64,000 nucleotides of DNA. Source: Schmidtea nova (lineage: Eukaryota). Within the stretch, counting starts at the first letter, position 1. Each line of letters opens with the position of its first letter. Below the pieces are notes generated by a model. That model was not told the origin of the DNA and did no database searches. It worked only from the letters and a program-made list of their open reading frames with translations. The stretch spans positions 20,398,001 to 20,462,000 of the forward strand of contig CM097884.1 of NCBI GenBank assembly GCA_044892505.1, given 5' to 3'. The translations under genes were made by a program, and so were the position numbers. Below are positions 50 through 61,763 of this stretch, one piece after another.

Positions 50-622
50 ATGAACCCAATGCAACAGCTTGAGGAGATACGCACGTTATTACTGGACAAT
101 GCAAGACACAACAAGAAGGTCGACGCATGTTTGGCCGAACTGGAGGCTAAAGGATTCTCCAACACAGATGCACTCCAGCTGATGACCAGCCGAATGGAGA
201 AATTTCGGGCCCGCTGTCGCGAAATGGAAGCTACATGGTCTGATAAGGAAACAGTAGACCGATTGAAGAAACAGAATCAGCTACTGATGCAACAAGCCGC
301 CGAAGACGCAATGAGATTGCGGGCGTGTCGTGTCTCAATGCGAGAGCAGGAGCTCGTGAATCAAAAACTACGGGTAGATAGTGGCATCATCTTGGCCATA
401 CTACCTAAATCTTAACCTCCACCTCAGGAATTGTTCCCGGTGAGAGTGGAGGAAGAAATCACAGCATCAGCGGCTCCGATCAAGTCAAAACGTTGGAGGC
501 CCAGTAAAGGAGCAAGGGTCAGGAACAAGCGCCGTCAAGAAGCACGAGTATTAGGCCAATTGAGAGTAGAGGCCTCGAAACTTGGTGATTTGAACATTGA
601 CTTGACTAGTGCACGTTTTTGA
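50..622 (+). pseudogene. ~190-aa coiled-coil protein with basic/arginine-rich C-terminus, interrupted by one in-frame TAA (413-415); cassette copy 1
   Basis: ORFs 50-415 and 431-622 are in the same frame. Copy 2 reads through this position (DSGMISAVIPKLSRPTQELVPVRVEEE vs DSGIILAILPKS*PPPQELFPVRVEEE). No known family recognised. Confidence 0.7.
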
Positions 623-849
623 GTTGATCTTCTAATAAATGTTGTTTTATGCTGTAATTACAAGTATTCAATTAGGTTACTTTTGTTTGTTTGAATGAGG
701 ATACAGATAATAATAAAAGCGCTCAAATAAATTAAATGATTAATAAATGAATCACGAATTAGCGAAAATATTCAAATGGAAATCTCGTATGGAAAATCCA
801 CAGTGATAGAGCAGTTAATTTAAAGGGACAAAAATGGGCATTAAACCTT

Positions 850-1063
850 CTATCGGTAGCCCTTGGACCCAGGAGATATTCGGTCAATCATAGTTTCGTA
901 TTGACGACGCTCACTGATTGCGAATACCCACCCACTTGTTACAGTACCAACGTTACATAGTGACGGGTAACAAGATGGTTATTTCAATGTTTTATGTGTT
1001 GAGTTGTTGATGAGAGCCATAGCAACGTCAAGGTCATATTGACGATCAACAACCCACCAATAG
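850..1063 (-). ncRNA. Unclassified multi-helix structured RNA element, copy 1
   Basis: Closing helix 850-859/1054-1063; arms 877-890/915-926, 896-899/904-907, 935-942/967-974, 1003-1010/1046-1053, 1026-1031/1039-1044; four compensatory pair changes versus copy 2; G-U wobbles favour the minus strand. Confidence 0.6.
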
Positions 1064-1202
1064 CTAAAGAAAACTTGTTACGGTGACCCATCTATCTAAA
1101 CTTTATGCACTTCATTTATATTATAAAAATTAAATAAATTCTTTTATCTCCCAAACAGTTTGACATCAGTCCGGCTTCGAGCTGTACTGATGGAAGTAGT
1201 CT

Positions 1203-1251
1203 GGGCGGATCGCTGATTGGTTCGTGACTGACCAGCCCATTTTGCGCCAAA
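1203..1251. promoter_or_regulatory. Compact promoter-like cassette (GC box, Y/CCAAT box, E2F-like site)
   Basis: GGGCGG 1203-1208, CTGATTGGTT 1213-1222 and TTTGCGCCAAA 1241-1251 form a GC-rich island in AT-rich DNA. Confidence 0.35.
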
Positions 1252-4238
1252 GTTTTTACAATTGAAAATATTATTATAATGTGAAAAAGAAATTTTTTTA
1301 AAAATTTAATTTACTCAGTTATTCAGAAAAATTATAAATGAAAAAAGAATCAAATTGTTAATTATAAATTGTAAAATTATTTTATTTATAAAAATATCAA
1401 TTTATAATTTACCTCCTCTAAAAATTATAAATAAGCTAAAAAACATTCTTTGCATTATATTGCATCCATATCATTTATTAACACCATCTATAACTAATAC
1501 CGTACAAAAATTCATTCATTTACTAACACATACACTACATTCTTTCATTCAATAGCATCCATCAGCTCCACACATCCAGAAAATTCTCACAAGCACTCTT
1601 TTCAATCTCACCCATCAATGAATTACTTATTTCACAACATTCTATTCAACATACAGCCACTTATAATCAGCAGCACACATCCAGATAATCTCCACAGGCA
1701 CTCGCATAATCACATCCATTGACAATTGCCTATTGTATAAAAATCTCATTTTTTACACACAAAAACTACAGAGAAAATTTGCAATAAAACTGAACATAAT
1801 TATGAATATAAACTTGTACATCCCAACATCGTAACCCACAAATCTATCCAAGTAGCATATTTAACAATCTACATCAACACAAGTTAATCCCTCTCGCTTA
1901 TTATTACATTCACCCATAGCATAATACATCCATAACTGCATGAAAAATCAACTCATCCAACATCCAACATCCATAGCCAACGTCATACATAAGCAATTCA
2001 TTCTCAATAATACCCTATAAAACATAATATCTGTTTTATTAGAAATAATACTACCATAATGTACTAAACATTTCAGTTGTAACCTACGCCACCCAATACA
2101 TACATTCACACATCCACCATAACGAAGTAGTTATATTATAAGTTTCCCTTTTAGTTATAAATTTGTATGAAAACGAAAATCGGCACTCACATTTCTATTT
2201 GGTTAAAATACCTTTACAATAAAACCGGGTTTTATAGAAGAATATAATTAAAAAGCCGAAAATATATGACATTTTTATTACCCAATTACAAGATAATGTA
2301 GATGACTTACAATTTTCAAATTCTTTTTTATTATCTTGACACAAAATCATAGGAGAAAAATCTTGTGGAAATGAGATCTGTAAATCGACGATTGTAGATT
2401 GATGCTGGGAAAAATCCAATTATGGAACGCCGAAACGTAGATTCCTTTGACGTTCATTGATTTCAGTAATAAATTTCGATTGTACGAAGAAAAATAAAAT
2501 CCAATTTTAGCAAAAGTGCGATAAATTTCCGAATAGGATAAAAATCGAAATTTTCCATGAGGCGAATGAAGAGCGGATGGGCTAGTTGGTGATCATGATT
2601 CACTGCGAGTTGCCAAAAGGAACGCATAGAAATCGTAACGTAAACTCCATAGAAAAACCCATGAAAATATGATAAATTGCAGAAATCGAATAAAACTTTG
2701 GTAGACAATATACACGACAGATATAAAACAAAAATAAAATTGATTGTGACCATGTAAATTTGCACTTACGATGTTATTGGAGGAGAATCGAGTCGTTCTG
2801 TAGTTACCTTGGGAATTCTAGCTATCTAAAAATAAATATAATCGATAAATTTTGGGTTTATACAAGCACACAAATTAGAATTAAATATGGAATAATATAA
2901 GGGAAAAGAAAAATTCAAATAAGTTATATAAAAAGAATATAGAAAAATAAAATAGCAATAAAAGAAAGATAAAATAATAAAATAAAAATAAAATAATCGG
3001 AACTTAAAAGTGATTGCCGACGAAAAACCCCGAATTTAGACAATAATTTACAATAAATAGAATTAAAGAAGAATAAATTAAAAATAATCCAAAACCCTTA
3101 ACTGTAGTGCAATACTATCAACCAGCATAAAAACTAAAAATGTCTTCCAAAGAGAACAAATGCGTATAAAACTTAATGGAACAAATTTTATCGAATTAAA
3201 AAGGAAAACACAATAAAATAAGCTTTATTTAACATTTGAATTGAATAAATTTTAGCAAGATCCAAAGCATTACATAACCACTCATCATGAAAGTCCATGC
3301 ATAGATAGAGAGATGAAAGTTCATCTGAGAGGCCTAGTAAAATCCCAGGATGGCCTATTGAACGAAAAATCCGAAATTATTTTTTAACTTCTAAATAATT
3401 TTTCTTTTCATATCAAAAAGTGAAAATCATAACATTAAGCTATGAAATGTTAAATTCGCTTTGAATCGAAAAATCCAGTGTAAAATGGAAAGAACCAATT
3501 TTGGCGATTGCAGATTTGGATTCTGAAGCTGTAGATTGAGCGATAGAAGCGATGGGGCTACTAGAAAATTGAATATTAACACTAAAAACCGAAAAATGAG
3601 TATCACTTACCATCGAAATTTGTACTAAGAAAAAATCCGTTCCTATAAATAGAAATTGTAAATTGATATGTATTATGCAATCTAAAGATGCTATATTATA
3701 AATTAGCCAATAGAAATTTAGAAATCTTTGCTTACCATTTATACCTTCGGCCTGAGAACGATTAGGATCCGATTTCCTAACATAACATTTGATCTAGAAT
3801 TTGAAAAATAAAATTTACCTTCGTAATCTTAGCGAAATATATAGGGTAAAACGAATACAATACTGGGAAAGTCTACACCGTTGCCGTTACTAAGGCCTCG
3901 TTAAAAATTTTAAATTATAAATGTTCAAATTTTATTAATATCTCTCACACCACTAGGTAAAGGGGATTAGCCAAATTTAGTTAAATCTTTAATATAAAAA
4001 ATATACAAGAATTTTGAAGTTATAAATTTCGACAACTAAATTAGAAAACGGTGAACAAATAGATTTTTCCCCGAACATGATCTTCTTTTTCACATCCAAC
4101 CCCGAATTGAGGAGTGATGGCGTGGAGATTGTGATTGCCCAGGTTGGTGATTGTGTGAAAAAAGAGATTTTCATTTGCATGTTTTGATATTCAATGCTCG
4201 CATAAACGCGTTTTGAAAGTCCTATACTCATTTCAGAA

Positions 4239-4790
4239 ATGAATATCGAACAAAAGTTAGAGGAAATTTTTCGAATGACCGTGGAGAATGCTAAGCATAA
4301 TCGACGGGTCGATAAGTGCTTCGCCGAATAAGAAGCGATGAAATCGTCGAAAACGGAGGCATTGCGGAATGACTTCGCGCATATAGAACTTTCGAGCCCG
4401 TTGCCGGGAGATAAAGGCAACGTGGTCTAACAAAAAAATTATTGATAAACTCAAGAGTCAAGTTCAAATGTTATTACAGCAAAATTTTATTACTCTATGA
4501 GGTTACGAGCTTGCCGGGTAAACATCCGGGAAAATGAGGTTATCATCTCAAGATTATAAATGGATAGTGGAATGATATCTGCCGTGATACCCAAATTGAG
4601 TCGGCCGACCCAAGAGCTAGTTCCAGTGAGGGTCGAGGAAGAAATCTTGGCACCTCCAGCTCCGGAGAAACCAAAACGCTGGAAACCCAGCAAAAAGGTT
4701 AGAGCGCGAAGGAAGCGCCGACAAGAAGCGCGTCTAATAGGACAGTTACGCAAATCGTCGATCGAGACAATTGATATTACACTTGTGTGA
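4239..4790 (+). pseudogene. Decayed paralogue of the 50-622 coiled-coil/arginine-rich ORF; cassette copy 2
   Basis: MNIEQKLEEIF..NAKHNRRVDKCFAE*, RCREIKATWSNK, MRLRACRV and RWKPSKKVRARRKRRQEAR align to copy 1; contains stops and frameshifts. Confidence 0.75.
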
Positions 4791-5038
4791 TAACATCTTA
4801 TTTTTATTGAGTTATCGGTGTTAATTTGATTTATAAATTTGTAGCTCGTGTATATTATATTAAATTTTCTGTGATTATGAATTATTTTCTTTTATGGCTG
4901 GTATGATGGGAATGAATATATGATTAAACAGGTTTCATAAGAATCTTAAGGGTAAAATATTGACAATTGAATTCATCCGTGTAAACGAATAGAAGATATT
5001 GGAAAAACATCGAAGGGACGAAAAGGGCATTAAACCTT

Positions 5039-5251
5039 TTATCGGTAGCCCTTGGACCCAGGAAATATTCGGTCAATCATAGTTTCGAATTTTCGACGCT
5101 CACTAATTGCGAATACCCACCCATTTGTTGCATTACCAACGTTACATTGTGACGGGCAACAAAATGGTTAATCTAATGTTTTGTATGTTGAGTTGTTGAT
5201 GTGAGCCATAGCAGCGCCAAGGTCATGTTGACGGTCAACAACCTACCATAA
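5039..5251 (-). ncRNA. Unclassified structured RNA element, copy 2
   Basis: Homologous to 850-1063 with the same helices preserved by compensatory or wobble substitutions. Confidence 0.6.
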
Positions 5252-8206: not shown

Positions 8207-9789
8207 TAGTGGCGTAGCCAGGTTTCAACACCAGGAGGAGCGAGAAGATTAGAAAAGGCCCCACTTACCAAGATCAAAATAACTCATTTAATTTCAGTTA
8301 ATTATATCAATTGGGATACAGTTTTTACGCATTTATTTTTGCATTTTAAATATAAAAATAAAACACCAAGTCACCAACACCCATAAAGTTGCAATCAAAA
8401 ACAATAATGTTTAGTAATATCATAATGTGTTATTGTATTTGTATATCAGAAGAAACCAGTTACATCAGCCTTTTTCGCCTAGGCTTCATTTTAGCAAAGT
8501 AATCAATTACTTCGTTATAATCCACTTCACTAGCAAACTGTCTTTCAATCGTCATCAAAGCTAAACCTGACAACCTGTCTTCGCCAATTGTAGAACGTAC
8601 GTATGACTTAATGAGTTTGAGTCGGCTGAACGATCGTTCCGTGCTAGCACTGTTGATTGGCAAGGTTAGAAAAACGGGGTACAATGTGGACAGATTAGGA
8701 TAAATGTAACACATGTCATTGGCGATCATGAATTTCAGTACATTCTTGATGGTCATTTGACTCATTTCTTCGTCACTGGAATTGTCCTTATTATTAATAA
8801 TGATTATTTCCTTGTGCAGGTCTTTAAAAGAAAGAAACTCTTGAACAATTTCAGTTTTACTTTTGATGACGTCAGAGTACATCTCTGCCAGATAATATAA
8901 TTTGGTCACATTATCGGCGTTTCTAAAATGCTTTGGATCTAAACTAAATTTGGATTCCACGTTGTTAAAATGCTCAAATTTCTTAGTTGTGCTAGTGACA
9001 CTAGGTAGGTTTCAACCATAAACTGTTTTCGAGAATCAGATAGTCTTTCATCCTGTGGCATTTCCTCATGAAATCTCTTTCTATGCCGAACTCTTTGTTG
9101 CTTATAGTCAAAAGTAAAATCACATTTTTTTGCCAGCTCAGTTGCTTCATTCTTAATCTGTTTGAACTCAGATTCAAATTCACTTCGCATGTTTTTCATA
9201 TCGTTTTGAAATAGTTGAATCAAATGAGAAGCTGTTGCCAAATCAATACTACTTCTCTGCAAATATGTGGACAGACTGAAAGCCTTATTTAGCATTTTTT
9301 CCCATAATATTAAAATAACTAAAAATTCGTATGTATCAAGTGTTACAAGAATACCCTTTGCCTCAGCCACCTGTTTAGCAGTACAGTTTTTTTACTCACC
9401 ATCCACAATTCGTTGCAGGGCAACTAATAATGCTGGTAAATTCTGCAAGACTGCATCTACTGCTGATTTCCTGGATGCCCATCTGGTTTCGCAAAGTCTT
9501 TTTAAAGTTAATTCAAACGATTCTATATAATTGCATTGCTCTTCTTTTAATTTGGTACTTGGATAAGGAAATGTTAAACTATCGAATTTATAGACGGAGT
9601 GAACACAGTTTTTAACTTTTTATGTTATTGGAACGATTGAAATAAATAAATACAGCTTTGTGACTTGCAAAATTGGAAATTGAAATTATTGAATAAAGTA
9701 TTTGTTTTATTCTTGAAAAGGCCCAACATTTTGAAAAATGGTCTCAGGTGGAGCGGCCGCTCCCCCTGCTCCCCCTAGCTAAGCCCCTG
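8207..9789 (-). mobile_element. Internally deleted hAT DNA transposon (ZMYM1/THAP12-like transposase C-half)
   Basis: 8-bp TSD GTTATCAG (8199-8206 and 9790-9797); imperfect TIR tagtggcgtagc/caggggcttagc; LCETRW motif and dimerisation domain LPINSASTERSFSRLKLIK; frameshifted. Confidence 0.9.
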
Positions 9790-12790: not shown

Positions 12791-13031
12791 ACAGCAGCAA
12801 TTCGTGATAGTATTGTGTGTGCAAACTATGTAAAATAATCAGTAGGATATTCATTCCATATTTGTTGAACAGTTCAAAGTAAATGAATTTAATAATAATA
12901 TATGCATATAAACTATTAAATAATATAGGTATGCATAAACTTGTAAAATTTGAAGAAAAAAATAGAAATTTTGTAGATATCCAATATTAAACAGGTGAAG
13001 AGTTGATTTCTGTAATTTTAAAAAATGATAG

Positions 13032-13198
13032 AGTAATGATATTGCAATAAAGGCCAAAGAACAAATGTGAAGCAGTTCAGAGTATATTGCGTAATTCAAT
13101 CACTGTGTTAGTTATTGCGCAATATACATAACTATTTAAGAGTGATCACTCTGTGTTTTTAGTAAATAAATCTTTAGATGGAACCGATTGTTGTAACT
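13032..13198 (+). repeat. 5' LTR (AGT...ACT termini)
   Basis: Direct repeat of 17480-17646; contains AATAAA near 13165. Confidence 0.97.
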
Positions 13199-14380
13199 GG
13201 CGACCACGCCGAAAATATTCACACGATGACGACTCGAGGAGAAGGGAAAAAATCTGCAAGAGACGTACTACCAAAACGTGCTCAAGAACTCTTGGATATG
13301 GAAATTAGAAGATACGATGGCAGATGTACCAAAGAAGCTGAAAAATGGATACATGCAATTGATGATTGGATCGCTAGAAATGACTTAAAGAGGACAGAAG
13401 CATTCGATTTTCTCCTTTGCGACGAAGCGGCTACGCTGTGGAAAAATTTCAAAACAGAAAAAACAACAGATAAAGCAGCTAAAGAATGGTTTTCCGAAAC
13501 ATTTACTATTAAATTGACTATTTTAGACAAGATTAAAGAACTTGCTGCAATTAGACAAGATGAAAATGAAAGATATGCAACCTTCGAAATCCGGGTATTA
13601 AAATTAGTGGATGAAGTTATTAATTCAGGAATGAGGGTAGAGGAAATTTCCAATGAAATTATAACTGGACGAGTCAGAGACAGAAGATTAAAAGATGCGC
13701 TAACAATGAAACCAACGATGACCGCAGAAGAACGAAATCAACTGGCCAAAATTTACGAAAAAGTGGAATCAAAAGAAAAGACGGAAGAAATTGTGGTAAT
13801 AAAAAAGAGTAGTTACGCAGAAGCAACAAGGAGAAGGAATCCAGAAACGTTTACCAGAGAAACAAATGGAAGTAATGGCAATATATTAAGAATCCAAGGA
13901 AATTACAGAAGAGAGAATTTACCAGATAATTCTTATAGCAGAAATAACGAAATAAATAATACAGTCGAACGGAATATGCAGAGAAGGACACCAACGGTTT
14001 CGCTTAAACACATCGCCAAGAGATTATACAATCGATCTAGAGGCCTTCCTGATCCAAGAAACGGCGAATTACAGTCAGGTCAATGTTTTTGCTGTGGAGA
14101 ATATGGGCATAGAAGATATGAATGCCCACTAAAAGATAAATGTTTGATATGTGGTAAGGGAGGACATAATTTTCGTGATTGTTATTTATTAAGAAAGAAA
14201 GAACAGCAGAACTATGAGAACAAGAAAATTATATCTTGTGTGCATGATGAAGAAAACGGAAGAAATTACTCGGATGATGCAGAAACCAGAGAATCAATTA
14301 GTGATTATGCAATTCATGATGTGGAAACTGAAAAAAACACGAGGAACTCTATTGCATACATTTCGTCAATGGGGTTGTAA
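13178..14380 (+). CDS. gag: Gag with two CCHC zinc knuckles
   Basis: CFCCGEYGHRRYEC and CLICGKGGHNFRDC. The true start may be the Met at ~13226, because the first ATG lies inside the LTR. Confidence 0.92.
   Translation: MEPIVVTGDHAENIHTMTTRGEGKKSARDVLPKRAQELLDMEIRRYDGRCTKEAEKWIHAIDDWIARNDLKRTEAFDFLLCDEAATLWKNFKTEKTTDKAAKEWFSETFTIKLTILDKIKELAAIRQDENERYATFEIRVLKLVDEVINSGMRVEEISNEIITGRVRDRRLKDALTMKPTMTAEERNQLAKIYEKVESKEKTEEIVVIKKSSYAEATRRRNPETFTRETNGSNGNILRIQGNYRRENLPDNSYSRNNEINNTVERNMQRRTPTVSLKHIAKRLYNRSRGLPDPRNGELQSGQCFCCGEYGHRRYECPLKDKCLICGKGGHNFRDCYLLRKKEQQNYENKKIISCVHDEENGRNYSDDAETRESISDYAIHDVETEKNTRNSIAYISSMGL
13198..13208 (+). promoter_or_regulatory. Primer-binding site TGGCGACCACG, probably tRNA-Arg(UCG)
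   Basis: Overlaps the last LTR base; complementary to a tRNA 3' end CGUGGUCG-CCA. The tRNA identity is inferred from typical metazoan Arg-UCG acceptor stems. Confidence 0.7.
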
Positions 14381-14398
14381 AGAAAGAAAATCGGAATG
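14332..14398 (+). promoter_or_regulatory. -1 programmed ribosomal frameshift signal (A AAA AAC plus pseudoknot)
   Basis: Slippery heptamer 14332-14338 in the gag frame; the pol frame opens right after TGA 14329-14331; 6-nt spacer; stem 14345-54/14367-76 and second stem 14359-65/14392-98. Confidence 0.8.
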
Positions 14399-15576
14399 AC
14401 AGAGCAGAAGGAATGAGGTATGTAACATCAGATGGAAGAGAATGGAGCAAGATGATGATAAATGATGTTGAGATTGAGATGTTGTGGGATTCTGGAGCTT
14501 CGATTACAGTGATGAATGAGGAAACGTGGAATAAAATTGGTAGTCCACGGTTAAGCAGTAGTGAAATCAAAATATGTGGAGTTTTTCCAGGAACTCAAAA
14601 ACCACTGGGATGTACAGAAGCAAATGTTTATTGGCACAATAAGATGAGGAGTATCAAAATAATTGTTATTAAAAATATTTTTCCAGGTTTTATTGGTGGG
14701 GTGGATACTTTGAAAGCATTTGGAGTGCAGTTGATGGAAATTAACAATATTGAATCCGAGACAAAAATTAGTAATTATACTGATGAGGAGAGAAGACAAA
14801 AAGCAAAAAATGAAATGGGAAAAAATGAATTGCCGACAATTAACAAATTATTAGATGAATTCGGATCAATATTTATGGCAGCTAGATTTGATTTAGGATT
14901 CACAAGAATCGTTGAACATGAAATTAATACATCTGGGAATCCAACAATGCAATTTCCAAGACGACAACCGATGCATCTAGAACAGAAAATTGACGATATG
15001 ATAAAAGAGTTAACAAAAGCTGGAGTTATAAGACGCTGTAAAAGTCCATGGAGCTCCCCATTAGTCGTAGTGGGGAAGAAAGACGGCTCAATAAGAATGT
15101 GCGTAGACTATCGAGAGCTGAATAAGATAACAGAAAGAGAATCTTTCCCTATGCCCAACATATCTCAATTACTCGATAACCTATCAGGATCTAAATACTT
15201 TTCTTCTTTAGATCTTGGACAAGCATACTATCAGGTAGCATTAGCAAAAGAAGCGCAAGAGAAAACGGCTTTTAGTTCCAAAGAAGGTCAATTTTGTTTC
15301 AATCGACTTCCGTTTGGACTATCAACGGCTCCAGCAACGTTTCAGCGATTAATGCACACGATGTTAGAGGGTATATTGTTTAATGGAGCAATTGTTTATT
15401 TAGACGATATTCTTGTATATGGCAAGGATCAGTCTGAACATGATGAGCGATTACGAGAAGTTTTTAAAAGAATACAAAAAACAGGACTAAGAATAAATCC
15501 GGAGAAGTGCGAAATTTACAAAACAAAATTAAAATTCCTTGGTTATACCATCAGAGACAAATTCAGAGAAGATTAA
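14332..15576 (+). CDS. pol: Pol part 1: aspartic protease and reverse transcriptase
   Basis: LWDSGASITV; SPWSSPLVVVGKKDGSIRMCVDYRELN; YLDDILV. Confidence 0.95.
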   Translation, partial: KKHEELYCIHFVNGVVKKENRNDRAEGMRYVTSDGREWSKMMINDVEIEMLWDSGASITVMNEETWNKIGSPRLSSSEIKICGVFPGTQKPLGCTEANVYWHNKMRSIKIIVIKNIFPGFIGGVDTLKAFGVQLMEINNIESETKISNYTDEERRQKAKNEMGKNELPTINKLLDEFGSIFMAARFDLGFTRIVEHEINTSGNPTMQFPRRQPMHLEQKIDDMIKELTKAGVIRRCKSPWSSPLVVVGKKDGSIRMCVDYRELNKITERESFPMPNISQLLDNLSGSKYFSSLDLGQAYYQVALAKEAQEKTAFSSKEGQFCFNRLPFGLSTAPATFQRLMHTMLEGILFNGAIVYLDDILVYGKDQSEHDERLREVFKRIQKTGLRINPEKCEIYKTKLKFLGYTIRDKFRED

Positions 15577-17470
15577 GTCAATTACAGAAGCGACGAAACC
15601 GCAGTGTGCTAAACAACTTCGATCATTTCTGGGTTTGACAAATTATTATAGACGATTTGTTAAAGATTACGCTAAAATAGCAGCACCCTTACATGCAGCA
15701 GCTTCAGGTTGTGATAAAACAATCAAATGGTCAGAAAATTGTGAAAACAGTTTTAGTCAGCTTAAAGAAGCCTTAACACAAGCTCCTATTCTTGATTTCC
15801 CTCGTATAGATCGGAAATTTATTTTGGATACTGATGCCAGTTTTGAGGCTATTGGAGCCGTTTTGAGTCAAATAAAAGAAGACGGTTCAGAAATAGTTAT
15901 CGCATACGGTTCAAGAAATCTGACGGCCCATGAAAAGGGATACTGCGTAACCAGGAAAGAATTATTAGCGTTACATGAATATGTTTTATATTTTAGACAG
16001 TATTTATACGGGAAAGAATTCGTGGCCCGAACAGATCACAAGGCTTTAGTATTTATGAACACAAACAAAAAAGCAATAAGTCCACAATTTCAGACATGGA
16101 TGGCTAATCTATCGGAATATGACTTCCAATTGAAATACCGGAAAGGTGAAGAACATGCAAATGCAGATGGATTATCAAGGATCGGGGGTAGTTTGTGTGC
16201 ACAATGTCAGACAGCACATGTACAACATAAACAAGAAAGATCAAGGGTAAGATACATCAATTTGATACAAAAAACACATACAATGTTGGAGATTATGGAA
16301 GAACAGAAGAAAGATAAATTGTTCCAGGACGCGATGGAAATTCTTAGGAATCAGATAGATGTTCGAAAGGAATCGTTTCAAAATAGTTTTTTATTCAGAT
16401 ATAAAGATCAGTTAAAGATATCGGATGATATGCTTGTATTGGAAAAGGACAAAATAGATCTAGTGGTAATCCCAGAAAGCTATCAATCTAAATTAGTGAT
16501 TAAAATACATGAAGATTTATGTCATGTTGGAACTAAGAAACTGTTTCATTATTTGGAAGGGAATTTTTTCTGGCCGAAAATGCAAGAAACCGTTAAAGAG
16601 ATAGTAAAACGATGTGTCACTTGTGCAAGAAGGAAAATAGACCAAGGAAAGACAAAGGAAATTTTAATTCCACACGAAAGTTCTGAATTTCTAGAACAGA
16701 TTGTTATGGATGTTGCTGTCATGGAGAGAACTTCAACAGACAAAAGGTATGTTATCGTTATTATTGATAGGTTTAGCAAATTAGTAAGTCTAACGGCTAC
16801 AGCAAACCAAGATGAAAAAACTATTTTAAAGACGCTAATGAACAATTGGATTTACAAATATGGTAAACCTCAAAGTATATTGACGGACAGAGGGCGAAAT
16901 TTTGAAAGCAAATATTTGAAGGAAAAATTAGAACAGCTGGGAATAAAGCAAGAATTCGCTACGCCGTATCAACATCAGTCGAATGGCCTAGTGGAAAGAG
17001 CTATCAGAACAATGAGGGATTTACTTGTGACTACGATGAAAGGTGGCTGTGCTGAAAAACAGTGGCACGAACTGCTGCCTCGAATTGAATTCAGTATTAA
17101 CGCAACTTATCAAAGTGCTACAAAATTTTCACCATTTGAGATAGTATATGGACGGAAAATAACATTACATGCTAATTCTAGACTCAAACATCAAATACGA
17201 GATATTTCAGAAGAAGCACAAACGAATAACAAGCAAGCTGCTCAAAAGATGAGGAAATTCGAGGATGACAAAAGAATTAAACGACATTTTGAAGTGGGGG
17301 AGGAGGTACTAGTACGACGAGAACCACATAGAAGAAACAAAAATGATATTCAATATGATGGTCCATATAAAATTCTTAGATTTGTGTCAGATCACCAAGT
17401 TGAATTGCAATATCCAAATACAACGCGACACCGACGAATCGAATGGTTAAAGAGATGGCATCAATCTTAA
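15539..17470 (+). CDS. pol: Pol part 2: RT connection, RNase H, integrase (frameshifted relative to part 1)
   Basis: LDTDASFEAIGAVLSQ, KELLAL, TDHKAL, ADGLSR; HHCC motif; DD35E (MDVAV, TDRGRNF, NGLVERAIR); GPY motif; no chromodomain or env. Confidence 0.95.
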   Translation: MVIPSETNSEKIKSITEATKPQCAKQLRSFLGLTNYYRRFVKDYAKIAAPLHAAASGCDKTIKWSENCENSFSQLKEALTQAPILDFPRIDRKFILDTDASFEAIGAVLSQIKEDGSEIVIAYGSRNLTAHEKGYCVTRKELLALHEYVLYFRQYLYGKEFVARTDHKALVFMNTNKKAISPQFQTWMANLSEYDFQLKYRKGEEHANADGLSRIGGSLCAQCQTAHVQHKQERSRVRYINLIQKTHTMLEIMEEQKKDKLFQDAMEILRNQIDVRKESFQNSFLFRYKDQLKISDDMLVLEKDKIDLVVIPESYQSKLVIKIHEDLCHVGTKKLFHYLEGNFFWPKMQETVKEIVKRCVTCARRKIDQGKTKEILIPHESSEFLEQIVMDVAVMERTSTDKRYVIVIIDRFSKLVSLTATANQDEKTILKTLMNNWIYKYGKPQSILTDRGRNFESKYLKEKLEQLGIKQEFATPYQHQSNGLVERAIRTMRDLLVTTMKGGCAEKQWHELLPRIEFSINATYQSATKFSPFEIVYGRKITLHANSRLKHQIRDISEEAQTNNKQAAQKMRKFEDDKRIKRHFEVGEEVLVRREPHRRNKNDIQYDGPYKILRFVSDHQVELQYPNTTRHRRIEWLKRWHQS

Positions 17471-17479
17471 GAAGGGGAG

Positions 17480-17646
17480 AGTAATGATATTGCAATAAAG
17501 GCCAAAGACCAAATGTGAAGCAGTTCAGAGTATATTGCGTAATTCAATCACTGTGTTAGTTATTGCGCAATATACATAACTATTTAAGAGTGATCACTCT
17601 GTGTTTTTAGTAAATAAATCTTTAGATGGAACCGATTGTTGTAACT
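17480..17646 (+). repeat. 3' LTR, preceded by polypurine tract AAGAAGGGGAG (17469-17479)
   Basis: Direct repeat of the 5' LTR, followed by the GATAG TSD. Confidence 0.97.
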
Positions 17647-17812
17647 GATAGAAAAGCTGAATGGGTCCAATATGATAAGGAAAAGTATGGAGTTCATACT
17701 CTTATTAGGAATATCCCGAGTATTATCTCGGAATATTGTCACTCCCATCTTATCATTTAAGCGGTGATTATACACAGTAATAATGATTTGTGCCTTTTTA
17801 ACATTAACTTAC

Positions 17813-23266: not shown

Positions 23267-23990
23267 TTACTTAAACACATTCAAAATATCAGTGGAACGG
23301 GCAACTTGATCATTTATTTTTGGATTAATATATCTAATCAACAATGCATCACAAGTTCCTCGTTCCCAATAATTACTTAAACCCTTTGAAATAATTTTAA
23401 AATCAGAGATACCTATTTTTTTACTGACACATTTCCTAAAATGATCACTAATATTAGTCAATCCTTTTGGTCGGCAATGCTCAAGAACTCGGGTGCAGAG
23501 ATGACGGGCAGTCTCTCCAATGTATGTGGCATTACACCCATTACATGAAAATTGATACACGAGCTCAGAACACAAACCAATTGGCGTTGGACATTTACTA
23601 GTGAACATACTGCTAACTTTGCAAGACGTCGAAACAATCCTAAATTGATCCTTGTCTATATATTTTGAGAATCTTATGCTTAAATTCTCTGAAGCCCTCA
23701 GAATAAGGCAATACCAACACATATTTCGGCTCCGTGCGATTAGATCGATTTTTGTCACTTTCCGAAATTAACATCAGTACTTTCATCAATAGGTACCTCA
23801 GATTCAGACATACGCATACCAACATTATCAGATTTCAACATTAACTTATCCACGGTCACTTTTGTCATTTTCTCAAGAAAAGATTTAGAGTAACCGTTTT
23901 TAAGTAGCAACTCAACCAATACATCAATACTTTTTACTGAATTCACAAACGTGAATTCTGAGTTGGTGTTTTTCTATAATTAAATCATTG
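23267..23990 (-). mobile_element. 5'-truncated Penelope-like element (RT thumb/linker and GIY-YIG)
   Basis: LVYQFSCNGCNATYIGETARHLCTRVLEH; upstream LLKNGYS and VLPYSEG segments are frameshifted. Confidence 0.9.
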
Positions 23991-31950: not shown

Positions 31951-33233
31951 CAAATTATTTTATTTATTTATCATATTATTTAATCTTATCATTTGAGTAT
32001 CCTCAAAAAATTGAAATTCATCCAATTTTAACAACATTTACTGTATTTCGTGAAATATTTAGTTAGTGTTGTTTTAATAAGCAAAATTAGTTTAACGAGA
32101 AAATATTTAGTCCGTCCGAAACAGTGGTTTCCAAACTTAAACCTTTTTCAAAACCCTCTTTTTAAAAAATTTACTAAACGTCTCTTGGAAATCTACATTC
32201 TTTAAATGAACAAAAAGATATATGAATCTATATTTCTACCTACGTCCTAAGATAAAGTAAAGAAAGATGTTCTAAACAAGTCACATTAAAGCTTGAAATT
32301 ATAAAATTATTTAACAAAATCACAAAAATGAATGCGCCAGTAGGTAATATATAATATACAATTTGCTAAACTTTTCTCACGGAAAACTTTGAAATATATT
32401 TCATCGAATTCGGGAAAAATCAAATAATAAACCCATTAAAATTGACCAATTCATCAAATATTTAAAACGATAAAAATGTTTATATTTATAAACTATAATG
32501 AGATCTAATTTCCGTTTCAGACAATTCCAATTATTATAAAAAGATCAAGTGATTTGGGAAATTAATAGTTATAATCAATTATAAATATGATTTGATTTTG
32601 ATGATTTTGTTAGTCTCAAAATTATAAATATATTGAAATAATAAATATATGGAGCATTTTAACAAAAGCCGCTAGGTTAATGATTATGTTAATCCTCCAG
32701 TTGACTAATTATTATTAAATTCTATTGGAATATTATGAAAATTATATTTATATTTTAATACATAAAAAACAAAAATGACATTGAAATAATTAAAAACAAA
32801 CGTCAATCCAAAATTATATTAACACAATATATTTCTAAAAACATCAATCTCCTTTTTAGGTGCTTTTCAATTCAACATTCCAATATAAACCAATAAATAG
32901 ATATTAAACTGAAAAGCACTTGAAGAATAGAATGATATTCTCGAAATTTATTGGGTAATTTTGGATTGGCGTGTTTTTAATAATTTCAGTGCCATATTTA
33001 TTTCATTCTGTATTGTTATATAAATATAATTATCATAATACTCCAATAGCATTTAATAATAATTAGTCATCTGGAGAATTAATTATATTTTTTATTATTT
33101 TTTTGATTATTATTTTGATAATTCTTCTTCTTCTTCTTATTCTGAGGGCTTCAAAAAAATTAGGCATATATTGTTTCTGACGTGGTTTTCAATAAAATTA
33201 ACATTTTTATAGATAAATTAAGTAAAAACATAC

Positions 33234-33589
33234 TTAAATAAAAGACCATCTGATGCCATAGCATAAATAATTCTAGGCAAAGGAAATTCACTGCCCATTA
33301 AACTAGCACTCATTCCAGCCACCCCACCGAGTCCCACTATCCATTTTGCCCAATATAAACCTCGTATATCAAAAGCTTCAGTAATTGGACTTGATGTTTT
33401 CAAATTTCCAAAAGGCACCATCATTGTCAAAACAGTTGCAACACCAAAATAAAATGTAAAACAGACCAACAAAGTCAACGCCATTGCTTTTGGAATACTT
33501 TTACTTGGTGATCGAGCTTCTTCGCCTGTTGTTGCTATCACGTCGAATCCAACATAAGCATAAAAACATGTTGCTGCCCCTGATAAAAC
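33234..33589 (-). CDS. SLC7A14: SLC7A14/CAT-like exon 4
   Basis: VLSGAATCFYAYVGFDVIATTGEEARSPSKSIP...FPLPRIIYAMASDGLLFK. Confidence 0.95.
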
Positions 33590-33869
33590 CTAAATGAATT
33601 TTTACGTTATTACAATAAAACATAAAATGACTTATTTTAATTAATTTAAAGAATATTTCAAATGATTTTAGTGTTTGTTATTTATTTAGGAACACATCAT
33701 TTCAATATATAAATATAATTTTAATTTGCCACAGATCTTTGGTTATCAGTCATTTTTGGCATCTCTTTCTTTATCGCTGTAACGAGTTTCAAATTAATTT
33801 TTTAAGCTTAATCATACCAAAAATGAGAAATATTTTGATAATTATTTAATAAAAAATTATGACCTTTTC

Positions 33870-34500
33870 TATTTGTTTAGATTATGTAAGAATGTAAAAA
33901 ACTCCTGTTGAATATTTAATACGTGACCCAGAGACTCATCGTGGTATGATTTATTATAAAAATAAGTGGTACGATCAGGGTAAATGTAGATTTTCAGATA
34001 ACATTGGAATAAAAATATTATGTTATCGACAGAATTTACAAGAGCTTCAACATTTATAATTAATACAGCCAAATTTCCTGAAATTGAAGTCATTAGAAAT
34101 CCCTCCTTTTTTGGTTATTGCAAAAGCTGTTGAACTTGCTAAAACAATAAATATTGCAGAAAACGAATTCAAGGCTTCATGGGATTACAATCAATGCAGT
34201 GGCTCAGGTAGGGTATGAGTCTCCCGGGGCGATCATTAAATGGCCGCCTCCATACATTTTCACAGAGCTGTTTACTCTTAAAACTAGAAAAGCTGCCCTG
34301 CTGTTGCAATTTTCCGAATTGAATTCGGAAAACTCTGTTATCTACAAATAATAGGTACCCTACCTCATCTATCTGTAACATAACCGTCGTTAAAAATAGG
34401 AAAAATTTGTCTTTCGTCGCTTCCATCGGTATCCACCTCTTTTTGTAATGAGGTAGCATAAAGCACATGGTCAACTCGAACAAAATAGGGAACATCTGAT
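33870..34500 (-). mobile_element. Possible piggyBac transposase relic
   Basis: RWIPMEATKDKFFLFLTTVML and YP....DESL resemble PGBD4-type motifs; heavily decayed. Confidence 0.35.
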
Positions 34501-35145
34501 GAAACTTTGACTTTACCTATTCTAAAAAATCAACCAAATTTTCGAGTAAGTTGAAAATATTTGTATCCATAGGAGCAGCATTTTATGAGTCAAAAATCAG
34601 CATTTCTTAAAATAATTGGTTATTGTTAAGCCCTTGCTATTTGTTTAAAATTATATAAATACTCACAATCATAATCTGTTTACTTCGATGTTTTAATGAA
34701 TTTTATGATGTCGTAAAGCAATATTCACATGAATGTTTTTACTTCATAGACGAAACAGAATTATTTTAGAAACTTCTTCCTCCATACACAATTCTTATGC
34801 CCCCAAAACAATTTATCAACTTAAGAGGTAAAGATAAATCAAAAGAAATCAATTATTACATAACATGACTGTGTTGGTGACTTCATTTTAGAAAAACAGT
34901 TTATTATACAAAATATTGACAATATCGAAAATGATTGACTTTAGGAATTTGGTAAATATTCATATAAACATTTCAGCAATTATAAATTTCTGAACGTATT
35001 AGTAAAAATATTTTATTTTGAAATTAGTATTTCGAAATAATAATAATAATAATAATAATCATTTGAAACAAACAATATGCATATCAACGTATATCAACTA
35101 TAAACATATTTCATGACAAATTGAAAATAAATAAATTGATCATAC

Positions 35146-35354
35146 TCCATGAACACCTTTTGGAAAAAACTTTTTTTTGGTATTCCAATTTGATAATTTA
35201 GATTCAGCCGCACCAGCGACAATAATAAAAATTGCAACTGCCGCAGTAAGAAAATTGAAAAATGTTGTGTATCTGGCCGATTCTTTAACGCCCGCTGCCA
35301 ATATCATTGTCACAGATATTGTTAGAATGAATCCCAACATATCAGGCAATGCAT
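35146..35354 (-). CDS. SLC7A14: SLC7A14/CAT-like exon 3
   Basis: ALPDMLGFILTISVTMILAAGVKESARYTTFFNF...FFPKGVHG; phase 1/0. Confidence 0.92.
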
Positions 35355-38097
35355 CTGTATTATTGTAAAATTTAATACAATAACAATACAATTCAATATA
35401 ATATAATAAAAAAACAATGCANNNNNNNNNNNNNNNNNNNNNNNNNNNNNNNNNNNNNNNNNNNNNNNNNNNNNNNNNNNNNNNNNNNNNNNNNNNNNNN
35501 NNNNNNNNNNNNNNNNNNNNNNNNNNNNNNNNNNNNNNNNNNNNNNNNNNNNNNNNNNNNNNNNNNNNNNNNNNNNNNNNNNNNNNNNNNNNNNNNNNNN
35601 NNNNNNNNNNNNNNNNNNNNNNNNNNNNNNNNNNNNNNNNNNNNNNNNNNNNNNNNNNNNNNNNNNNNNNNNNNNNNNNNNNNNNNNNNNNNNNNNNNNN
35701 NNNNNNNNNNNNNNNNNNNNNNNNNNNNNNNNNNNNNNNNNNNNNNNNNNNNNNNNNNNNNNNNNNNNNNNNNNNNNNNNNNNNNNNNNNNNNNNNNNNN
35801 NNNNNNNNNNNNNNNNNNNNNNNNNNNNNNNNNNNNNNNNNNNNNNNNNNNNNNNNNNNNNNNNNNNNNNNNNNNNATGTAATGTAACATAATATAATAT
35901 AACATAATATAATATAATATATCATAATATAATGTAAAGTGATATATTTTAATTTTTATATAATATAATATAATATAATACAGTTTTGCAATTGCAATTC
36001 AACATTTTGGAAATCATACTCGACAATAATGTTGAATTTGTATTAGAAAACCTGTATTATAGTGAAGTTAGAAATGGTAAGCCTTTCTCAGCGGTGTTAC
36101 TTTCTATGAAATATTTCGATCTTAAAAAGATTCTGATCACTCCAATGCGAAATTCTTTCCATTTAACTTATCAATTTTTCTTGTGTATTTTTCTTTCTGA
36201 AATCAGACTTCAGCTAAACTTAAGTGCATGATTCAAAGTAATCTCGTCAGTAGGGGAAAGTGAGGAGTTAGGCACAAGCCATTCATCACAGAAACCATGA
36301 ACCCCTCAAAAAAGAAGTTATACAGTAATGTGTATTCATTACGTTGTACTATATGTTTTATGTAATTGTTACATAATACTTTATACATTATGGAAACGTT
36401 ATGTTAGAAACGTTTGTTATGCGTTATACTTTATTTAACAAACAATACGTTTCATGTTACGTAATTTATTACATAACATGTTAAATACCATATACTCGAT
36501 TATATAATCCTTTATTCGTTATGCAATGGCTTAAAGATTACGTGAGTGATTATATAATACTAAAAAATTATTATTACCCTTATTTATTTTTATTTTTATT
36601 TTCAAAATTTTATCAAAAATTATTAAAATTATTAATTTTTTTCAAAATTTTTTTAAAATCTTAAAAATTAAGTAATATTTTCAACAAATACATGAATATG
36701 TTAAAGTCACAAACAAATTAGATGTATAAACGGTCGACTCCCACAAAAAATACTCGGAATTAAATATCTATTGTACCGATCTACTGAGAATTGAATGGCG
36801 AACAAAAAGGGTAAAAACGTAAAAACATGAAAAAATGGTCTCATCCAACGAAATTTTACACGTAAATAGGGAATTTCCAAAATTTTTTAAATGGTCAGAA
36901 TCAAATAATTTTTATACCAATCTACCGAGAATTGAATTGCGAACAAAAAAGGGTAAAAACATAAAAACGAAAAATTGAACTCATCCGACCAAATTTATTT
37001 ATCAAATCTTGTCTTTTCATTATAATTGTGTTGGTTAATTAAAATTTTAATAATAAGTATTTCATGTGATAAATTTATTACTAATTACTTAAGATCAATT
37101 AGTTTTTTATTAAAAAATAATTAATTTTTATTATCATAATTATTCTAAATTGATTTTGTTTTAATAATTGAAATTAAAATTAATTTTAAAATAATAATAA
37201 TAATTCACTGAAAAAAACTTTTTAAAGGGAAAATAAATAAATATTTTGGTTAATTTTTTATTTCCAATTATATTCAATTATATTCAGTAACGAGTATCAA
37301 AACCTTAGTAGCAGAACCTTGGTAGAAGAACCTCTTTTGTGATGGTTTTTATCCGCAAAAGCTTTATACTCATCCGATATTTTATGGATAAATAAGTGTG
37401 TGGGGGAGATTTATAAATCTCTTTTAAAAGAAACGATATACTTGGCCCCGTGAATTACACCATTTTGAATATGGATGTTAAACGGAATAGATCTCAATTT
37501 TGTTTTATTGAATGATTTAAAGACGATTGATCATGAACTAATGATAGATAAATATCTAAAGGGATAAAATCAAACTGATGGTAAAGTGTTTTAAATGATA
37601 AAACTTATAAAGAAAAAGTTAATTAGGATGGGTATTTCTTAAGGGTAAGATACTGAGTATTATTAAAATGAAATTATAAATGTAAAATATATTGAAAGGT
37701 AAGAATTCAGACGAGGAATTTTATTTAAAGAGTTATTTCTTATGGAAGATACATTCAGATTGGGGAATTATAAATGGGAAGTCAAGTAAAATGATGTTAA
37801 TCCTATAATTGAAAATTTTATTCAGAGTGATGATTTATTGGGGAAATTAACAATGAAAAATGAATTTATTGAAAATATTAATTTAATGGTTTTAATAAAT
37901 TACATTTAAATTGCTGATTTTTATGGAATGTGTTTATTTTCATCGAATTTATAAAAAATTACTTGTAGTCGATGTTCATTTTTTATCTAAAATAATGTAT
38001 CCAATTTAGATGTCAATAGTAACCAGTCAGCCAATCAAATTCAAGTATTTATCAAAAAAAATATTATAAATACCACATCTTTGAAAATATAAATCAA

Positions 38098-45327: not shown

Positions 45328-47438
45328 TTAGTGAGAAGTATGACTTGGTTTTTGAGAGACTAATGCTTCGATATTTGGTTCTATGGAACTAACAGCAATT
45401 CTCACTGAGTTCTTAAGGTGCTCATCAGATAATTTACTTCGAGTTTTATTCTTCATATGCTTCATTCTTGAAAAAGATTGCTTAAAAATATACGTACTTC
45501 CAAAAAGCGATGACATAAATATGGCATGGTTGTGAAACGAAGGATATCTTTCTCTAGAAAGATATTTCTTATAGTCCAGTAAAGGCACATTATTAATTTT
45601 TTCTCTAAGTTGAATATCAGCTTGTAACTCTATGCACTCCATTTGGAAATTAGTAGGTGTAATGTTTATGTCGGCTGAAAATGGAGTCGCGAATATAATA
45701 AAATTTTGCTCATTTTTTCGGAAATCTTGAAATCTGCTTTCAAATTCGCGTATCAAATCATCAAGCAAGGCTGCATATTTATCGTTGTTTACAGGGCGGT
45801 GCTGATCCGACGTTTTAAAATGTATAAATTGTTTGCCTTGATTTGAGATTGACACAGATTCAGTTTTTTTCAAACGATGTTATATTTTGAAAAATTTTAC
45901 TGATCAGTTGATTTTTACCTTGAAGACGCATGTTTAAATTATTTAAAGGAGAGGTTAAATTTACTAAAACTACCAAATCTGTGAGCCAGTTTTTATCGCC
46001 AAGCTTTGGCACAAATTTTGTTTTTGGTTCCATAAATGACTTTATTTCATTTCGTAAATCATAAAATCTTGTGAGCATTTTACCTCGACTTAACCATCTC
46101 GCTTCCCTATAGTCAGCGTCCATATTTTTAAGAAATTCCTGGAATTGGCGATAATTTAAACCCTTATTTTTTTATAAAGTTTACACACCTGATGACATCC
46201 CACATTACGTTACCCATCTTTAAAGCTTGTGCGCATCAATTTTCTTGGTATACTATGCAGTAATATTTCATCATTAGTAAATTTTTGGAAACAATTGCAT
46301 CGTCTTCTATTAATTTAACAAGTCCGTTTGTTTTACCTATCATCGCCAGGGCACCATCAGTAGCTGTACCAGATATGTTCCGAAGGGACAAAGAGAATCG
46401 CTTCAACGTATTTTTCACTGCTTCGTATAAATATCTTGATTTAGTTGTGTCTTTAATTGGCCATAAAGAAGCCATTTCTTCATTGATATTATATTCATTA
46501 TCAATACCTCTAATAAAAATTGCCAATTGAGCTGTATCAGTAGCATCAGTACTTTCGTCCACCGCCAAAGCATAAAATTTAAAATAAGTAACTTTATTCT
46601 CCAAACTTTTTTTATAGAATTTCCTATTTCAGCAATTCGTCTGGCTATGATTTGGTGCGATAAACTGATTTTGAAAAAAATCCTCTTTTCTTTCAGGGCA
46701 AATTATATAATTGTCACTTTCTCCATACAAATCTTAATAACTCACAATCGACATATGGTTTTGATTTTTTGGCAATCAAGTTCGCAATCACATAGCTAGT
46801 TTTTTACAATAGAATCGGTTTGAGTTGTTACGCTTTTAAAATTTTTTTTTGTTCAGGTAATGGACTTTTTTCAGTTCCACGATATTATCTTTACGACATA
46901 TTTCTTGATACACACTAAATTTCGTATCATGCTTTGTCGTGTAATGTCTTTTTAAATTGTAGTCTTTGAAAACTGGCACAGTATCCCTAAAAATCAAGCA
47001 AAGGGCGCTATTATTTGCTTCGACAAAAAGTATTCATCAGTCCACTTTTCATTGAATAATCTTTCCTTTTTGTTAATTTTTCTTCTTTCTGCATTAGTTT
47101 TCTCTTAAGACATTTTGAAACCTAGATTTGAATTAAAAAGAAAATAGATGTTAAATTAAAATACAATGATTTATATTATAAATTTCTATTTGATTATAAA
47201 TTTTATAAGTTTGAATAAACACAATTATTTTAAAACGATTTTATGAATCTCTCATCGCTAAAGAAAGTTACTAATTAAAAAATTCGTAGCTTTAAAATAA
47301 GTAGCATAAGAAAATTTTATATAAAAAGACATTAATAATATTTTAAAAACTAATAAAGTTCGTAAGTTTACAAATGTGTTTTGGGCCACATTTACAGCAG
47401 TGCTGGGCCACATACGGCCCGTGGGTTGGACAAGCCTG
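45328..47438 (-). mobile_element. hAT-Charlie/SPIN (GTF2IRD2-like) transposon, decayed transposase 45328-47113
   Basis: LAVDESTDATDTAQLAIFIRG, EARWLSRGKML and LFGSTY..SFSRMK; 5' end CAGGCTTGTCCAAC at 47438; the 3' TIR was not seen (gap at 44929-45061). Confidence 0.9.
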
Positions 47439-61510: not shown

Positions 61511-61763
61511 TGGTTACTGCTGCTATAAACAAGGAAAGAGTCACTGACGGACCAGCGATATTAGATGAAACCTGCCCCACTACCACATAAATACCAGCTC
61601 CTAAAATGCTCCCAATTCCGAGATTTGTCAAATCAAAGGTAGTTAAACATTTTGATAAATCACTAGTAGAAGATTCTCTGTTTAAATTTGTGATATGTTT
61701 TCTTCGAAATAACGTATATCGTAGATTACCAATTGAACTTGAACAGTCTTTCCAACAAGTCAT
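61511..61763 (-). CDS. SLC7A14: SLC7A14/CAT-like exon 1 (3' end lost in an N gap)
   Basis: MTCWK..LFRRK..DLSKCLTTFDLTNLGIGSILGAGIYVVVGQVSSNIAGPSVTLSLFIAAV. Confidence 0.95.

Follow-up and report, generated by a model that had tools for sequence, protein, structure and literature searches.

The long terminal repeats (LTRs) of a giant, Burro-type Ty3/gypsy retrotransposon in Schmidtea nova hold a gene of their own, which is likely the second exon of a transcript that starts inside the LTR. The gene is old, under selection and encoded by the element, and its product is a conserved basic coiled-coil protein without an assigned family. That the LTR and the gene are real is hardly in doubt. Two copies are present in the window, i.e. 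the whole 64,000-nt stretch of DNA analysed here (contig CM097884.1, positions 20,398,001 to 20,462,000), and both represent 3' ends of LTRs of this element. An earlier note on the window paired the reading frame with a structured RNA downstream, as a protein and its cognate binding site, and held the parent element to be unidentifiable. The parent has now been identified, and the cognate module is not supported as stated. What, then, does the protein do? The reading favoured here, at a probability of roughly 0.4, is that of an RNA-level regulator of the element that would act in trans.

Two LTR ends in the window

Two reading frames and two basic motifs are found in the window, all on the forward strand. 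The LTR-encoded gene of copy 1 (50-622, 190 codons, lineage B) has an in-frame stop at 413-415. The gene of copy 2 (4239-4790, lineage C) is decayed, with several stops and frameshifts, and has an acceptor AG at 4235-4236. As both frames are interrupted, the ~190 codons ascribed earlier to each copy describe the family and not an open frame in the window; the frames themselves and their basic motifs are there. The Arg/Lys-rich motif is at 488-547 in copy 1, where it is predicted to be helical and is the protein's most conserved segment, and at 4674-4733 in copy 2.

Copy 1 is part of a solo LTR of 5,585 bp. The 3' part of this LTR fills positions 1-1059 and ends in CA at 1059; its TG start lies upstream of the window, at G000:C3:20393475 (L031:5475). 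The 3' end of an intron of ~3.7 kb occupies positions 1-47, with the acceptor AG at 46-47. The solo LTR has the 4-bp target-site duplication ATAG on both sides, on the right at 1060-1063, and the span first proposed for the feature, with its end at 1063, takes in these four bases. Positions 1064-5248 are the 3' 4.2 kb of an older LTR, that of copy 2, which is collinear with other LTRs and whose 5' part begins near L031:4424; a matching target duplication was sought for it and none was found. The copy 1 LTR appears to have inserted into the older copy 2 LTR.

Each LTR ends in a structured terminus, at 823-1059 in copy 1 and at 5013-5248 in copy 2, where it represents a second haplotype. The two are 89% identical, and the terminal element is a real repeat. 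In copy 1 it has hairpins near 876-928, 932-981 and 998-1059, is likely R-end/U5, and contains the hexamer ATTAAA at 840-845, a candidate polyadenylation signal. The spacing between frame and element is likewise real, measuring 200 and 222 nt after the stop codons instead of the 230-250 nt first given.

Elsewhere in the window, positions 13021-17647 are taken up by a distinct, compact Ty3/gypsy-like element. Its 179-bp repeats are 97% alike, and the domains of its three long frames were named by eye. Frames at 8460-9391, 23267-23767, 33218-35955, 45328-46628 and 60864-61775 resemble hAT transposases, a GIY-YIG remnant and amino-acid transporter exons. A shorter LTR of the family described here is found ~13 kb upstream of the window (L032:3957-7319).

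The parent element

The right edge of the terminal element is sharp, at the same base in 30/30 best genomic matches. Sequences past it are unrelated, except in 4/30 matches that run into a primer-binding site. In 5' LTRs this site starts 10 nt past the LTR end and is complementary to the 3' end of the host tRNA-Pro(TGG). Genome-wide there are 2,147 exact junctions of LTR end and primer site, and 8,302 matches to the exact LTR-end pattern, a lower bound for LTR ends. A SINE, MITE, ribozyme or tRNA-like end was considered for the repeat and rejected, since a primer site comes after it and it forms the end of an LTR. LTRs of the family are 4–5.6 kb long, with the reading frame and the folded RNA in the last kilobase. 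They start with TG and end with CA, have 4-bp target duplications (AAAC and ATAG), and flank internal regions as pairs (a 4.1-kb pair at 98% identity and a 3.6-kb match at 99.7%).

One element, L050, has frames for Bcl-2 (scoring below the Pfam cut-off), a fusion glycoprotein, protease (PR; RVP), reverse transcriptase (RT; RVT_1), RNase H and integrase. RING, ankyrin, TRAF-MATH and BIR accessory domains are present in others (L047, L048, L037), and a Gag with a zinc knuckle is found in the family. Planarian Burro, in the available text of its description, has the order Bcl-2-Env-PR-RT-RH-IN and RING, TRAF-MATH, BIR and ankyrin cargo (PMC6431247). The element matches this description in domain order and cargo and is called Burro-type on the strength of that comparison. 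Kilobase LTRs and thousands of copies are also shared with Burro/GYPSM1, as far as that text goes (PMC6431247). The elements here differ in that the cargo lies in several frames and many lack RT. The copies examined have several shorter frames, as against Burro's single polyprotein of ~4,900 aa; decay, the edges of the 10-kb stretches or a real split could each account for this.

Most sampled elements (L329-L367, L037, L047) are without RT; their RING, protease-ankyrin, TRAF and BIR cassettes are 94-99% alike. A minority has gag, env and RT-RH-IN. There is here a large non-autonomous family that keeps accessory genes.

Several further features of these elements may be mentioned. In two of them (L034, L046) a purine tract is absent just before the 3' LTR, and the flank at this place looks like the LTR-end/primer-site junction in reverse complement, so that the plus strand may be primed in an unusual way. 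Some frames (L046:8406-9230 on the minus strand, L037, L207) encode Cys-rich products of 206-275 aa that begin with a hydrophobic stretch and have no Pfam match; the frames are situated near the 3' LTR or inside inserted elements, and the products are possibly secreted. LTRs of the family are often inserted in one another (L060, L103, L117), and several elements contain nested gene blocks that we take to be Polinton/Maverick-like (L036, L041, L207-L208). The tRNA-Pro(TGG) pattern has 1,106 matches genome-wide, and a tandem array of these tRNA genes with a 308-bp period is found at G000:C1:459.61-459.66 Mb (L163).

A spliced gene inside the LTR

In lineages A, B and C a pyrimidine-rich AG stands 0-3 nt before the ATG. 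Exact loss of the sequence from a GT donor to this AG is seen in four loci. Three of them (L197, L198, L201) were among 5 matches in a pattern search for A-type starts that lack the acceptor, and the fourth (L218) was among 30 examined of 201 B-type matches; one intron-loss element has the loss in both LTRs. The donors are ~740-970 nt into the LTR. Three different donors were used among the four loci, and each of the three reads GTAAG or GTAAA in other LTRs. As far as genomic copies can, these losses show a multi-kilobase GT-AG intron that lies inside the LTR and ends just before the ATG. Intron-less copies are rare, and thus the RNA that is copied would normally keep the intron.

In 14/20 distinct LTR starts a TATA box, followed 31 nt later by an Inr-like motif, is present at LTR position 538-610. 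This pair of motifs is conserved and lies 130-350 nt upstream of the donors. In copy 1, motifs put the promoter at L031:6012/6043 and the likely donor at L031:6357. An order of promoter, intron and reading frame within the LTR is very probable from these data. With the start inside the LTR, every LTR that bears the gene, a solo LTR too, would make it as its first product.

A reading frame in U3 was the first choice and was demoted after the intron-loss loci and the TATA/Inr-like motif were found. In that arrangement the main start would be near the terminal element, the intron and the frame would belong to U3, and the gene would be expressed from the 3' end of a long transcript. Intron loss would be equally possible from a 3' copy, and the jump in conservation at the left edge of the terminal element, where divergence is 6-12% within the element and 41-49% in the spacer, could mark a start. 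Retroviral R is only 15-250 nt long according to the accessible text of a review (PMC12789967). However, the promoter-like motif upstream of the donors is conserved, and no common TATA was seen by eye before the terminal element, so that the U3 layout is unlikely.

The gene and its product

The product has 184–190 aa and is intact in many natural copies. A protein search of the genome gave 5,232 candidates; 150 were scored, with 84-100% identity. Frames that start with ATG and have at least 175 aa are present in 21/30 copies of lineage A, 22/30 of lineage B and 5/30 of lineage C, the samples of 30 having been chosen by similarity (for B, the copies nearest to copy 1). In an unselected sample of 30 LTRs the gene is present in four, all intact, two of these being duplicates.

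Within lineages, dN/dS is 0.12 for A, 0.20 for B and 0.18 for C (46 intact copies), with codon-bootstrap ranges of 0.07-0.17 for A and 0.09-0.22 for B (6 copies each). L064 and L089 were omitted for irregular ends; dN is lowered because only intact copies were used and because those of lineage A were picked by protein similarity. Synonymous sites between the three lineages are saturated. The frame is thus old and under purifying selection, and neutral evolution, which the earlier note had named as refuting its proposal, is excluded.

Further lineages extend down to 38% protein identity. Among eight lineage representatives, mean identity is highest in the Arg-rich helix (77%), in keeping with the conserved basic motif first noticed, and reaches 73% in a Cys/Trp block at residues 48-66; most other segments are 25-57% identical, with the C-terminal tail the lowest at 25%. 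In L326, a very divergent gene lineage, the terminal element that follows is only 73% alike over 100 nt.

Are there relatives elsewhere? A profile search of 1.84 billion proteins gave three matches, of which two, P0001 and P0003 (E 2e-5 and 3e-4), are credible homologues from outside this genome. Both retain the Cys and Trp, the residues of the zipper and, in the basic motif, the Pro/Arg; they have fewer arginines and a different C-terminal tail. The third, P0002, was dropped as a repetitive chance match. P0003 represents a fusion in the database of a calponin-homology domain with the homologue, and is likely a mis-joined gene model over an LTR. A Pfam search with the gene product gave no family. 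Word-index protein searches gave no match for the reading frame, only itself for P0001 and none among longer proteins; searched viral contigs gave no match, and an atlas feature search with P0001 returned nothing beyond generic coiled-coil clusters. These searches yielded neither a host homologue nor a known domain for the product.

LTR fragments that hold the frame also form tandem arrays, at G000:C1:610.30-610.41 Mb (L272-L274) and at G000:C2:408.22-408.58 Mb. One array is built of 1,483-bp units that contain the terminal element; the 190-aa frame is intact in 5/5 whole units of L272, and there is no match to the LTR start or promoter; another, with units of ~1,257 bp, has open 184-aa frames. 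The arrays may be satellite, amplified gene or small-RNA source.

The protein is basic, and a membrane segment is not apparent. A model of a natural relative (pTM 0.27) has four helices, of which helix 153-187 covers the basic motif, and a 30-residue, low-confidence, Pro-rich linker that separates the zipper from the basic helix. A parallel dimer over residues 7-111 is predicted with a score of 0.35, as against 0.00 for the best of three controls; the runs share at least 61% of contacts, with pLDDT of at least 59. The mark used for the dimer score is reached by 21/30 solved pairs and 0/23 single chains in a microbial benchmark, and by 17/29 eukaryotic pairs, with only 1/7 among those without an older solved relative. 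The protein is predicted to form a coiled-coil dimer.

Foldseek comparisons with viral structures and the PDB gave no match at E up to 0.001, a fold test limited by the pTM of 0.27, and PDB sequences gave only a weak match to a fibrinogen coiled coil (E 0.06). Likeness to Rev, Rex, Rem, Tat and N was sought with Pfam, PDB sequences and Foldseek, and none was found in sequence or fold. Outside the coiled coil, conservation of a leucine-rich export signal was not seen; matches to the CRM1 export-signal consensus classes are consistent only at coiled-coil positions. The basic run presumably can also be read as a bipartite nuclear localisation signal.

The terminal RNA element

The terminal element, 237 nt in copy 1, is the end of the LTR. 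Rfam gave no match over it at E up to 5. Folding of the whole element is modest (z -1.8 and -1.5 for the plus and minus strands of copy 1, -0.7 for the plus strand of copy 2); for single hairpins, z is about -3 in copy 1 and lies between -1.6 and -2.1 in copy 2. Divergence between lineages is 6-12% in the element, 34-40% in the reading frame and 41-49% in the spacer.

In a 50-copy alignment 96% of cells pair. There are two compensatory pairs, each representing one haplotype change, and a third such change was seen by eye in an older lineage. Pairs with a change (four) are not above shuffles (418 of 500), and RNAalifold found no covariation. The 15 differences between the two haplotypes break 0 plus-strand pairs, which was matched by 1/20,000 random placements. 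Singleton changes are even over stems and loops (78 in 124 columns and 68 in 105, respectively), and hairpin 2 is poorly kept in L326, the most divergent copy. A conserved fold of the plus, transcribed strand is supported by these comparisons through few independent events, and to that extent the structured RNA proposed earlier is borne out.

The hexamer at 840-845 was compared across 138 copies, with ATTAAA in 98, AATAAA in 15, AAGAAA in 13, AGGAAA in 6 and others in 6. ATTAAA and AATAAA are enriched poly(A) signals in planarians, according to the accessible part of one study (PMC5068929). Poly(A)-tailed copies were sought within 28 nt after one anchor, and none was found. The terminal fold is best read as an R-end/U5 signal used by all family members; its location is that at which LTRs in general carry their cis signals for integration, priming and 3' processing.

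Linkage of gene and fold

Is the gene tied to the terminal element? Seen from the gene, the linkage is strong: the element lies downstream in 85/90 loci with the reading frame, at a distance of 195-265 nt in 80 of these, and also in 19/24 distinct loci from a divergent-copy search. The linkage exceeds chance. Seen from the element, the picture is different. Only 4/30 primer-site-linked LTRs have the frame and 26/30 have the element without it; among LTR ends taken in genome order, 13/30 are with and 17/30 without the gene. The coupling claimed earlier therefore holds in one direction only, and since both parts belong to one LTR, 'physically coupled' means 'in the same LTR', which is all that the adjacency reflects.

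In four gene-less LTRs the intron block is ~170 nt from the terminal element, as against ~940 nt, as if the region of the reading frame had been deleted. Another long cargo frame in its place was looked for and rejected, as only frames of 49-92 aa were found among 60 loci. The gene as a mark of autonomous elements was also rejected because env and RT do not track gene presence: they are found together in 2/10 gene-less and 1/9 gene-bearing elements, with 3 of the 9 disrupted and one further stretch dropped for uncertain gene status. The two gene-less elements carry env and RT-RH-IN. Gene-less LTRs dominate the primer-linked sample, and env and RT are found in 2/10 such elements; in cis, therefore, the gene is dispensable. 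The sharing of the terminal element with gene-less LTRs likewise makes the fold a family-wide LTR-end signal, with the gene optional in cis.

The RNA is 85-97% identical across proteins that are 38-83% identical. With the RNA nearly constant across diverged proteins, no cognate co-evolution is visible. A constant RNA, shared with gene-less LTRs, fits one common target or no relation.

Possible functions of the protein

The preferred scheme of RNA-level regulation would operate as follows. Transcription would start ~570-640 nt into the LTR, with TATA at -31 relative to an Inr-like TCAG, and the transcript would comprise a short non-coding exon, then the intron, the reading frame and the spacer, followed by the terminal element. 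Spliced mRNA would be short, with its end near this element; the RNA that is replicated would usually retain the intron and read through the element. After entry into the nucleus the protein, as a dimer formed through residues 7-111, would bind element RNA by its basic helices; once bound, it would favour long unspliced or read-through RNA, in the manner of Rev, Rex and phage N. Either the terminal fold or conserved blocks of the intron could be the target. Specific binding to the adjacent fold, the core of the earlier proposal, is putative and rather unlikely.

Replicated RNA must keep the intron and read through the LTR end, which favours a switch at the RNA level. A gene that is selected, optional in cis, probably first after the promoter and expressed from spliced RNA only, with a product predicted to be a dimer that has two basic helices, fits a nuclear trans-regulator. 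A CRM1 adaptor in the strict sense is disfavoured, as no export signal is conserved. An extended form of the scheme would be an independently evolved counterpart of complex-retrovirus regulation within an LTR, with a spliced early gene and a switch, through protein and fold, to intron-retaining read-through RNA. It would entail 4-5 kb of transcribed R-U5, and solo LTRs, in their thousands, would supply the protein, a dimer with an Arg-rich motif, in trans to gene-less relatives. The extended form is a possibility, although not a likely one.

Could the protein act on DNA? A DNA or chromatin transactivator, or an anti-silencing factor, might boost the LTR promoter by positive feedback; its basic helix would bind DNA or represent a nuclear localisation signal, and the terminal fold would be unrelated. 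The predicted parallel zipper and basic helices recall bZIP-like factors, but bZIP proteins are not known to have a linker between zipper and basic region such as the low-confidence, Pro-rich one of 30 residues modelled here, and neither Pfam nor fold searches gave a match. The likely position of the gene directly after the promoter suits a transactivator, on which gene-less LTRs could free-ride. BURRO RNAs rise on loss of SMEDWI-2, a PIWI protein, according to the available text of one report (PMC8532177), and thus anti-silencing would pay. On balance a transactivator deserves a minority share of belief.

It is doubtful that the gene is host-modulating cargo, comparable to the IAP, TRAF and Bcl-2 modules or MMTV Sag, with the LTR only an expression cassette and the fold an ordinary U5, priming or integration signal. 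The family has many host-modulating domains, gene presence is independent of RT content, and the fold is common to all LTR types examined; however, the best-conserved segment is a helix of nucleic-acid-binding type, and the searches for a host homologue or known domain were negative. A particle-associated, non-specific nucleic-acid chaperone or tether for packaging or strand transfer across the long LTR, of which LINE ORF1p and caulimovirus P3 are examples, would suit the long coiled coil, Pro-rich linker and basic tail and the very long LTRs to be copied, but is improbable, as Gag already has a zinc knuckle and gene-less LTRs are the majority of the primer-site-linked sample.

Relation to known systems and significance

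The nearest functional parallels to RNA-level regulation are HTLV Rex/RexRE, MMTV Rem/RmRE and HIV Rev/RRE. According to the accessible text of a review (PMC12789967), these share with the LTR gene a product made from spliced RNA, an Arg-rich motif, an oligomeric protein (predicted here) and intron-retaining RNA as the usual replicated form; as with RexRE, the structured RNA here is in the LTR. The differences are the absence of homology and of a conserved export signal, the long coiled coil, a gene situated wholly inside the LTR and dispensable in cis, and RNA binding that is putative. As the tests for homology and an export signal failed, the gene is not filed as a member of the Rev/Rex/Rem group, although by analogy it may work like Rex/RexRE or Rem/RmRE.

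MMTV sag is located in the U3 of the LTR. It is likewise an accessory reading frame in an LTR that is expressed from spliced RNA. Here the LTR contains donor, intron and frame together, all of them probably downstream of the start, and the product is basic; the sag product is a type II membrane protein from a singly spliced RNA, as stated in the available text (PMC12789967). Plant Ty3/gypsy elements carry additional reading frames (Grande gene23, Retand, PvRetro13) that are also conserved extra genes without known function; some products are nuclear or SMC-like, and a role like that of retroviral accessory proteins has been proposed. In the portion of the source at hand (PMC7264820) these frames belong to the internal region, most of them lying between pol and the 3' LTR, and are often antisense, whereas the gene described here is sense and in the LTR.

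A literature search gave no report of a Rev/Rex analogue in Ty3/gypsy elements and no relevant precedent for an LTR-encoded gene or an intron in an LTR. The accessible text of the Burro description mentions neither a gene nor an intron inside the LTR (PMC6431247); the original Burro papers, including the primary one, their supplements or Repbase may already note the reading frame. The new part is the LTR that holds a spliced accessory gene.

LTRs are usually treated as non-coding control regions. In this family, kilobases of LTR are likely downstream of the start and contain what appears to be a spliceosomal intron, together with a gene that is under selection and whose protein family has no name. 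With intron and gene within the LTR, a solo LTR could be a complete expression unit, present in thousands of copies. The splice sites can be read from the copies with exact intron loss, and RNAi and RNA-seq are feasible in planarians. Should the protein control splicing, read-through or export, it would constitute a Rev/Rex analogue outside retroviruses.
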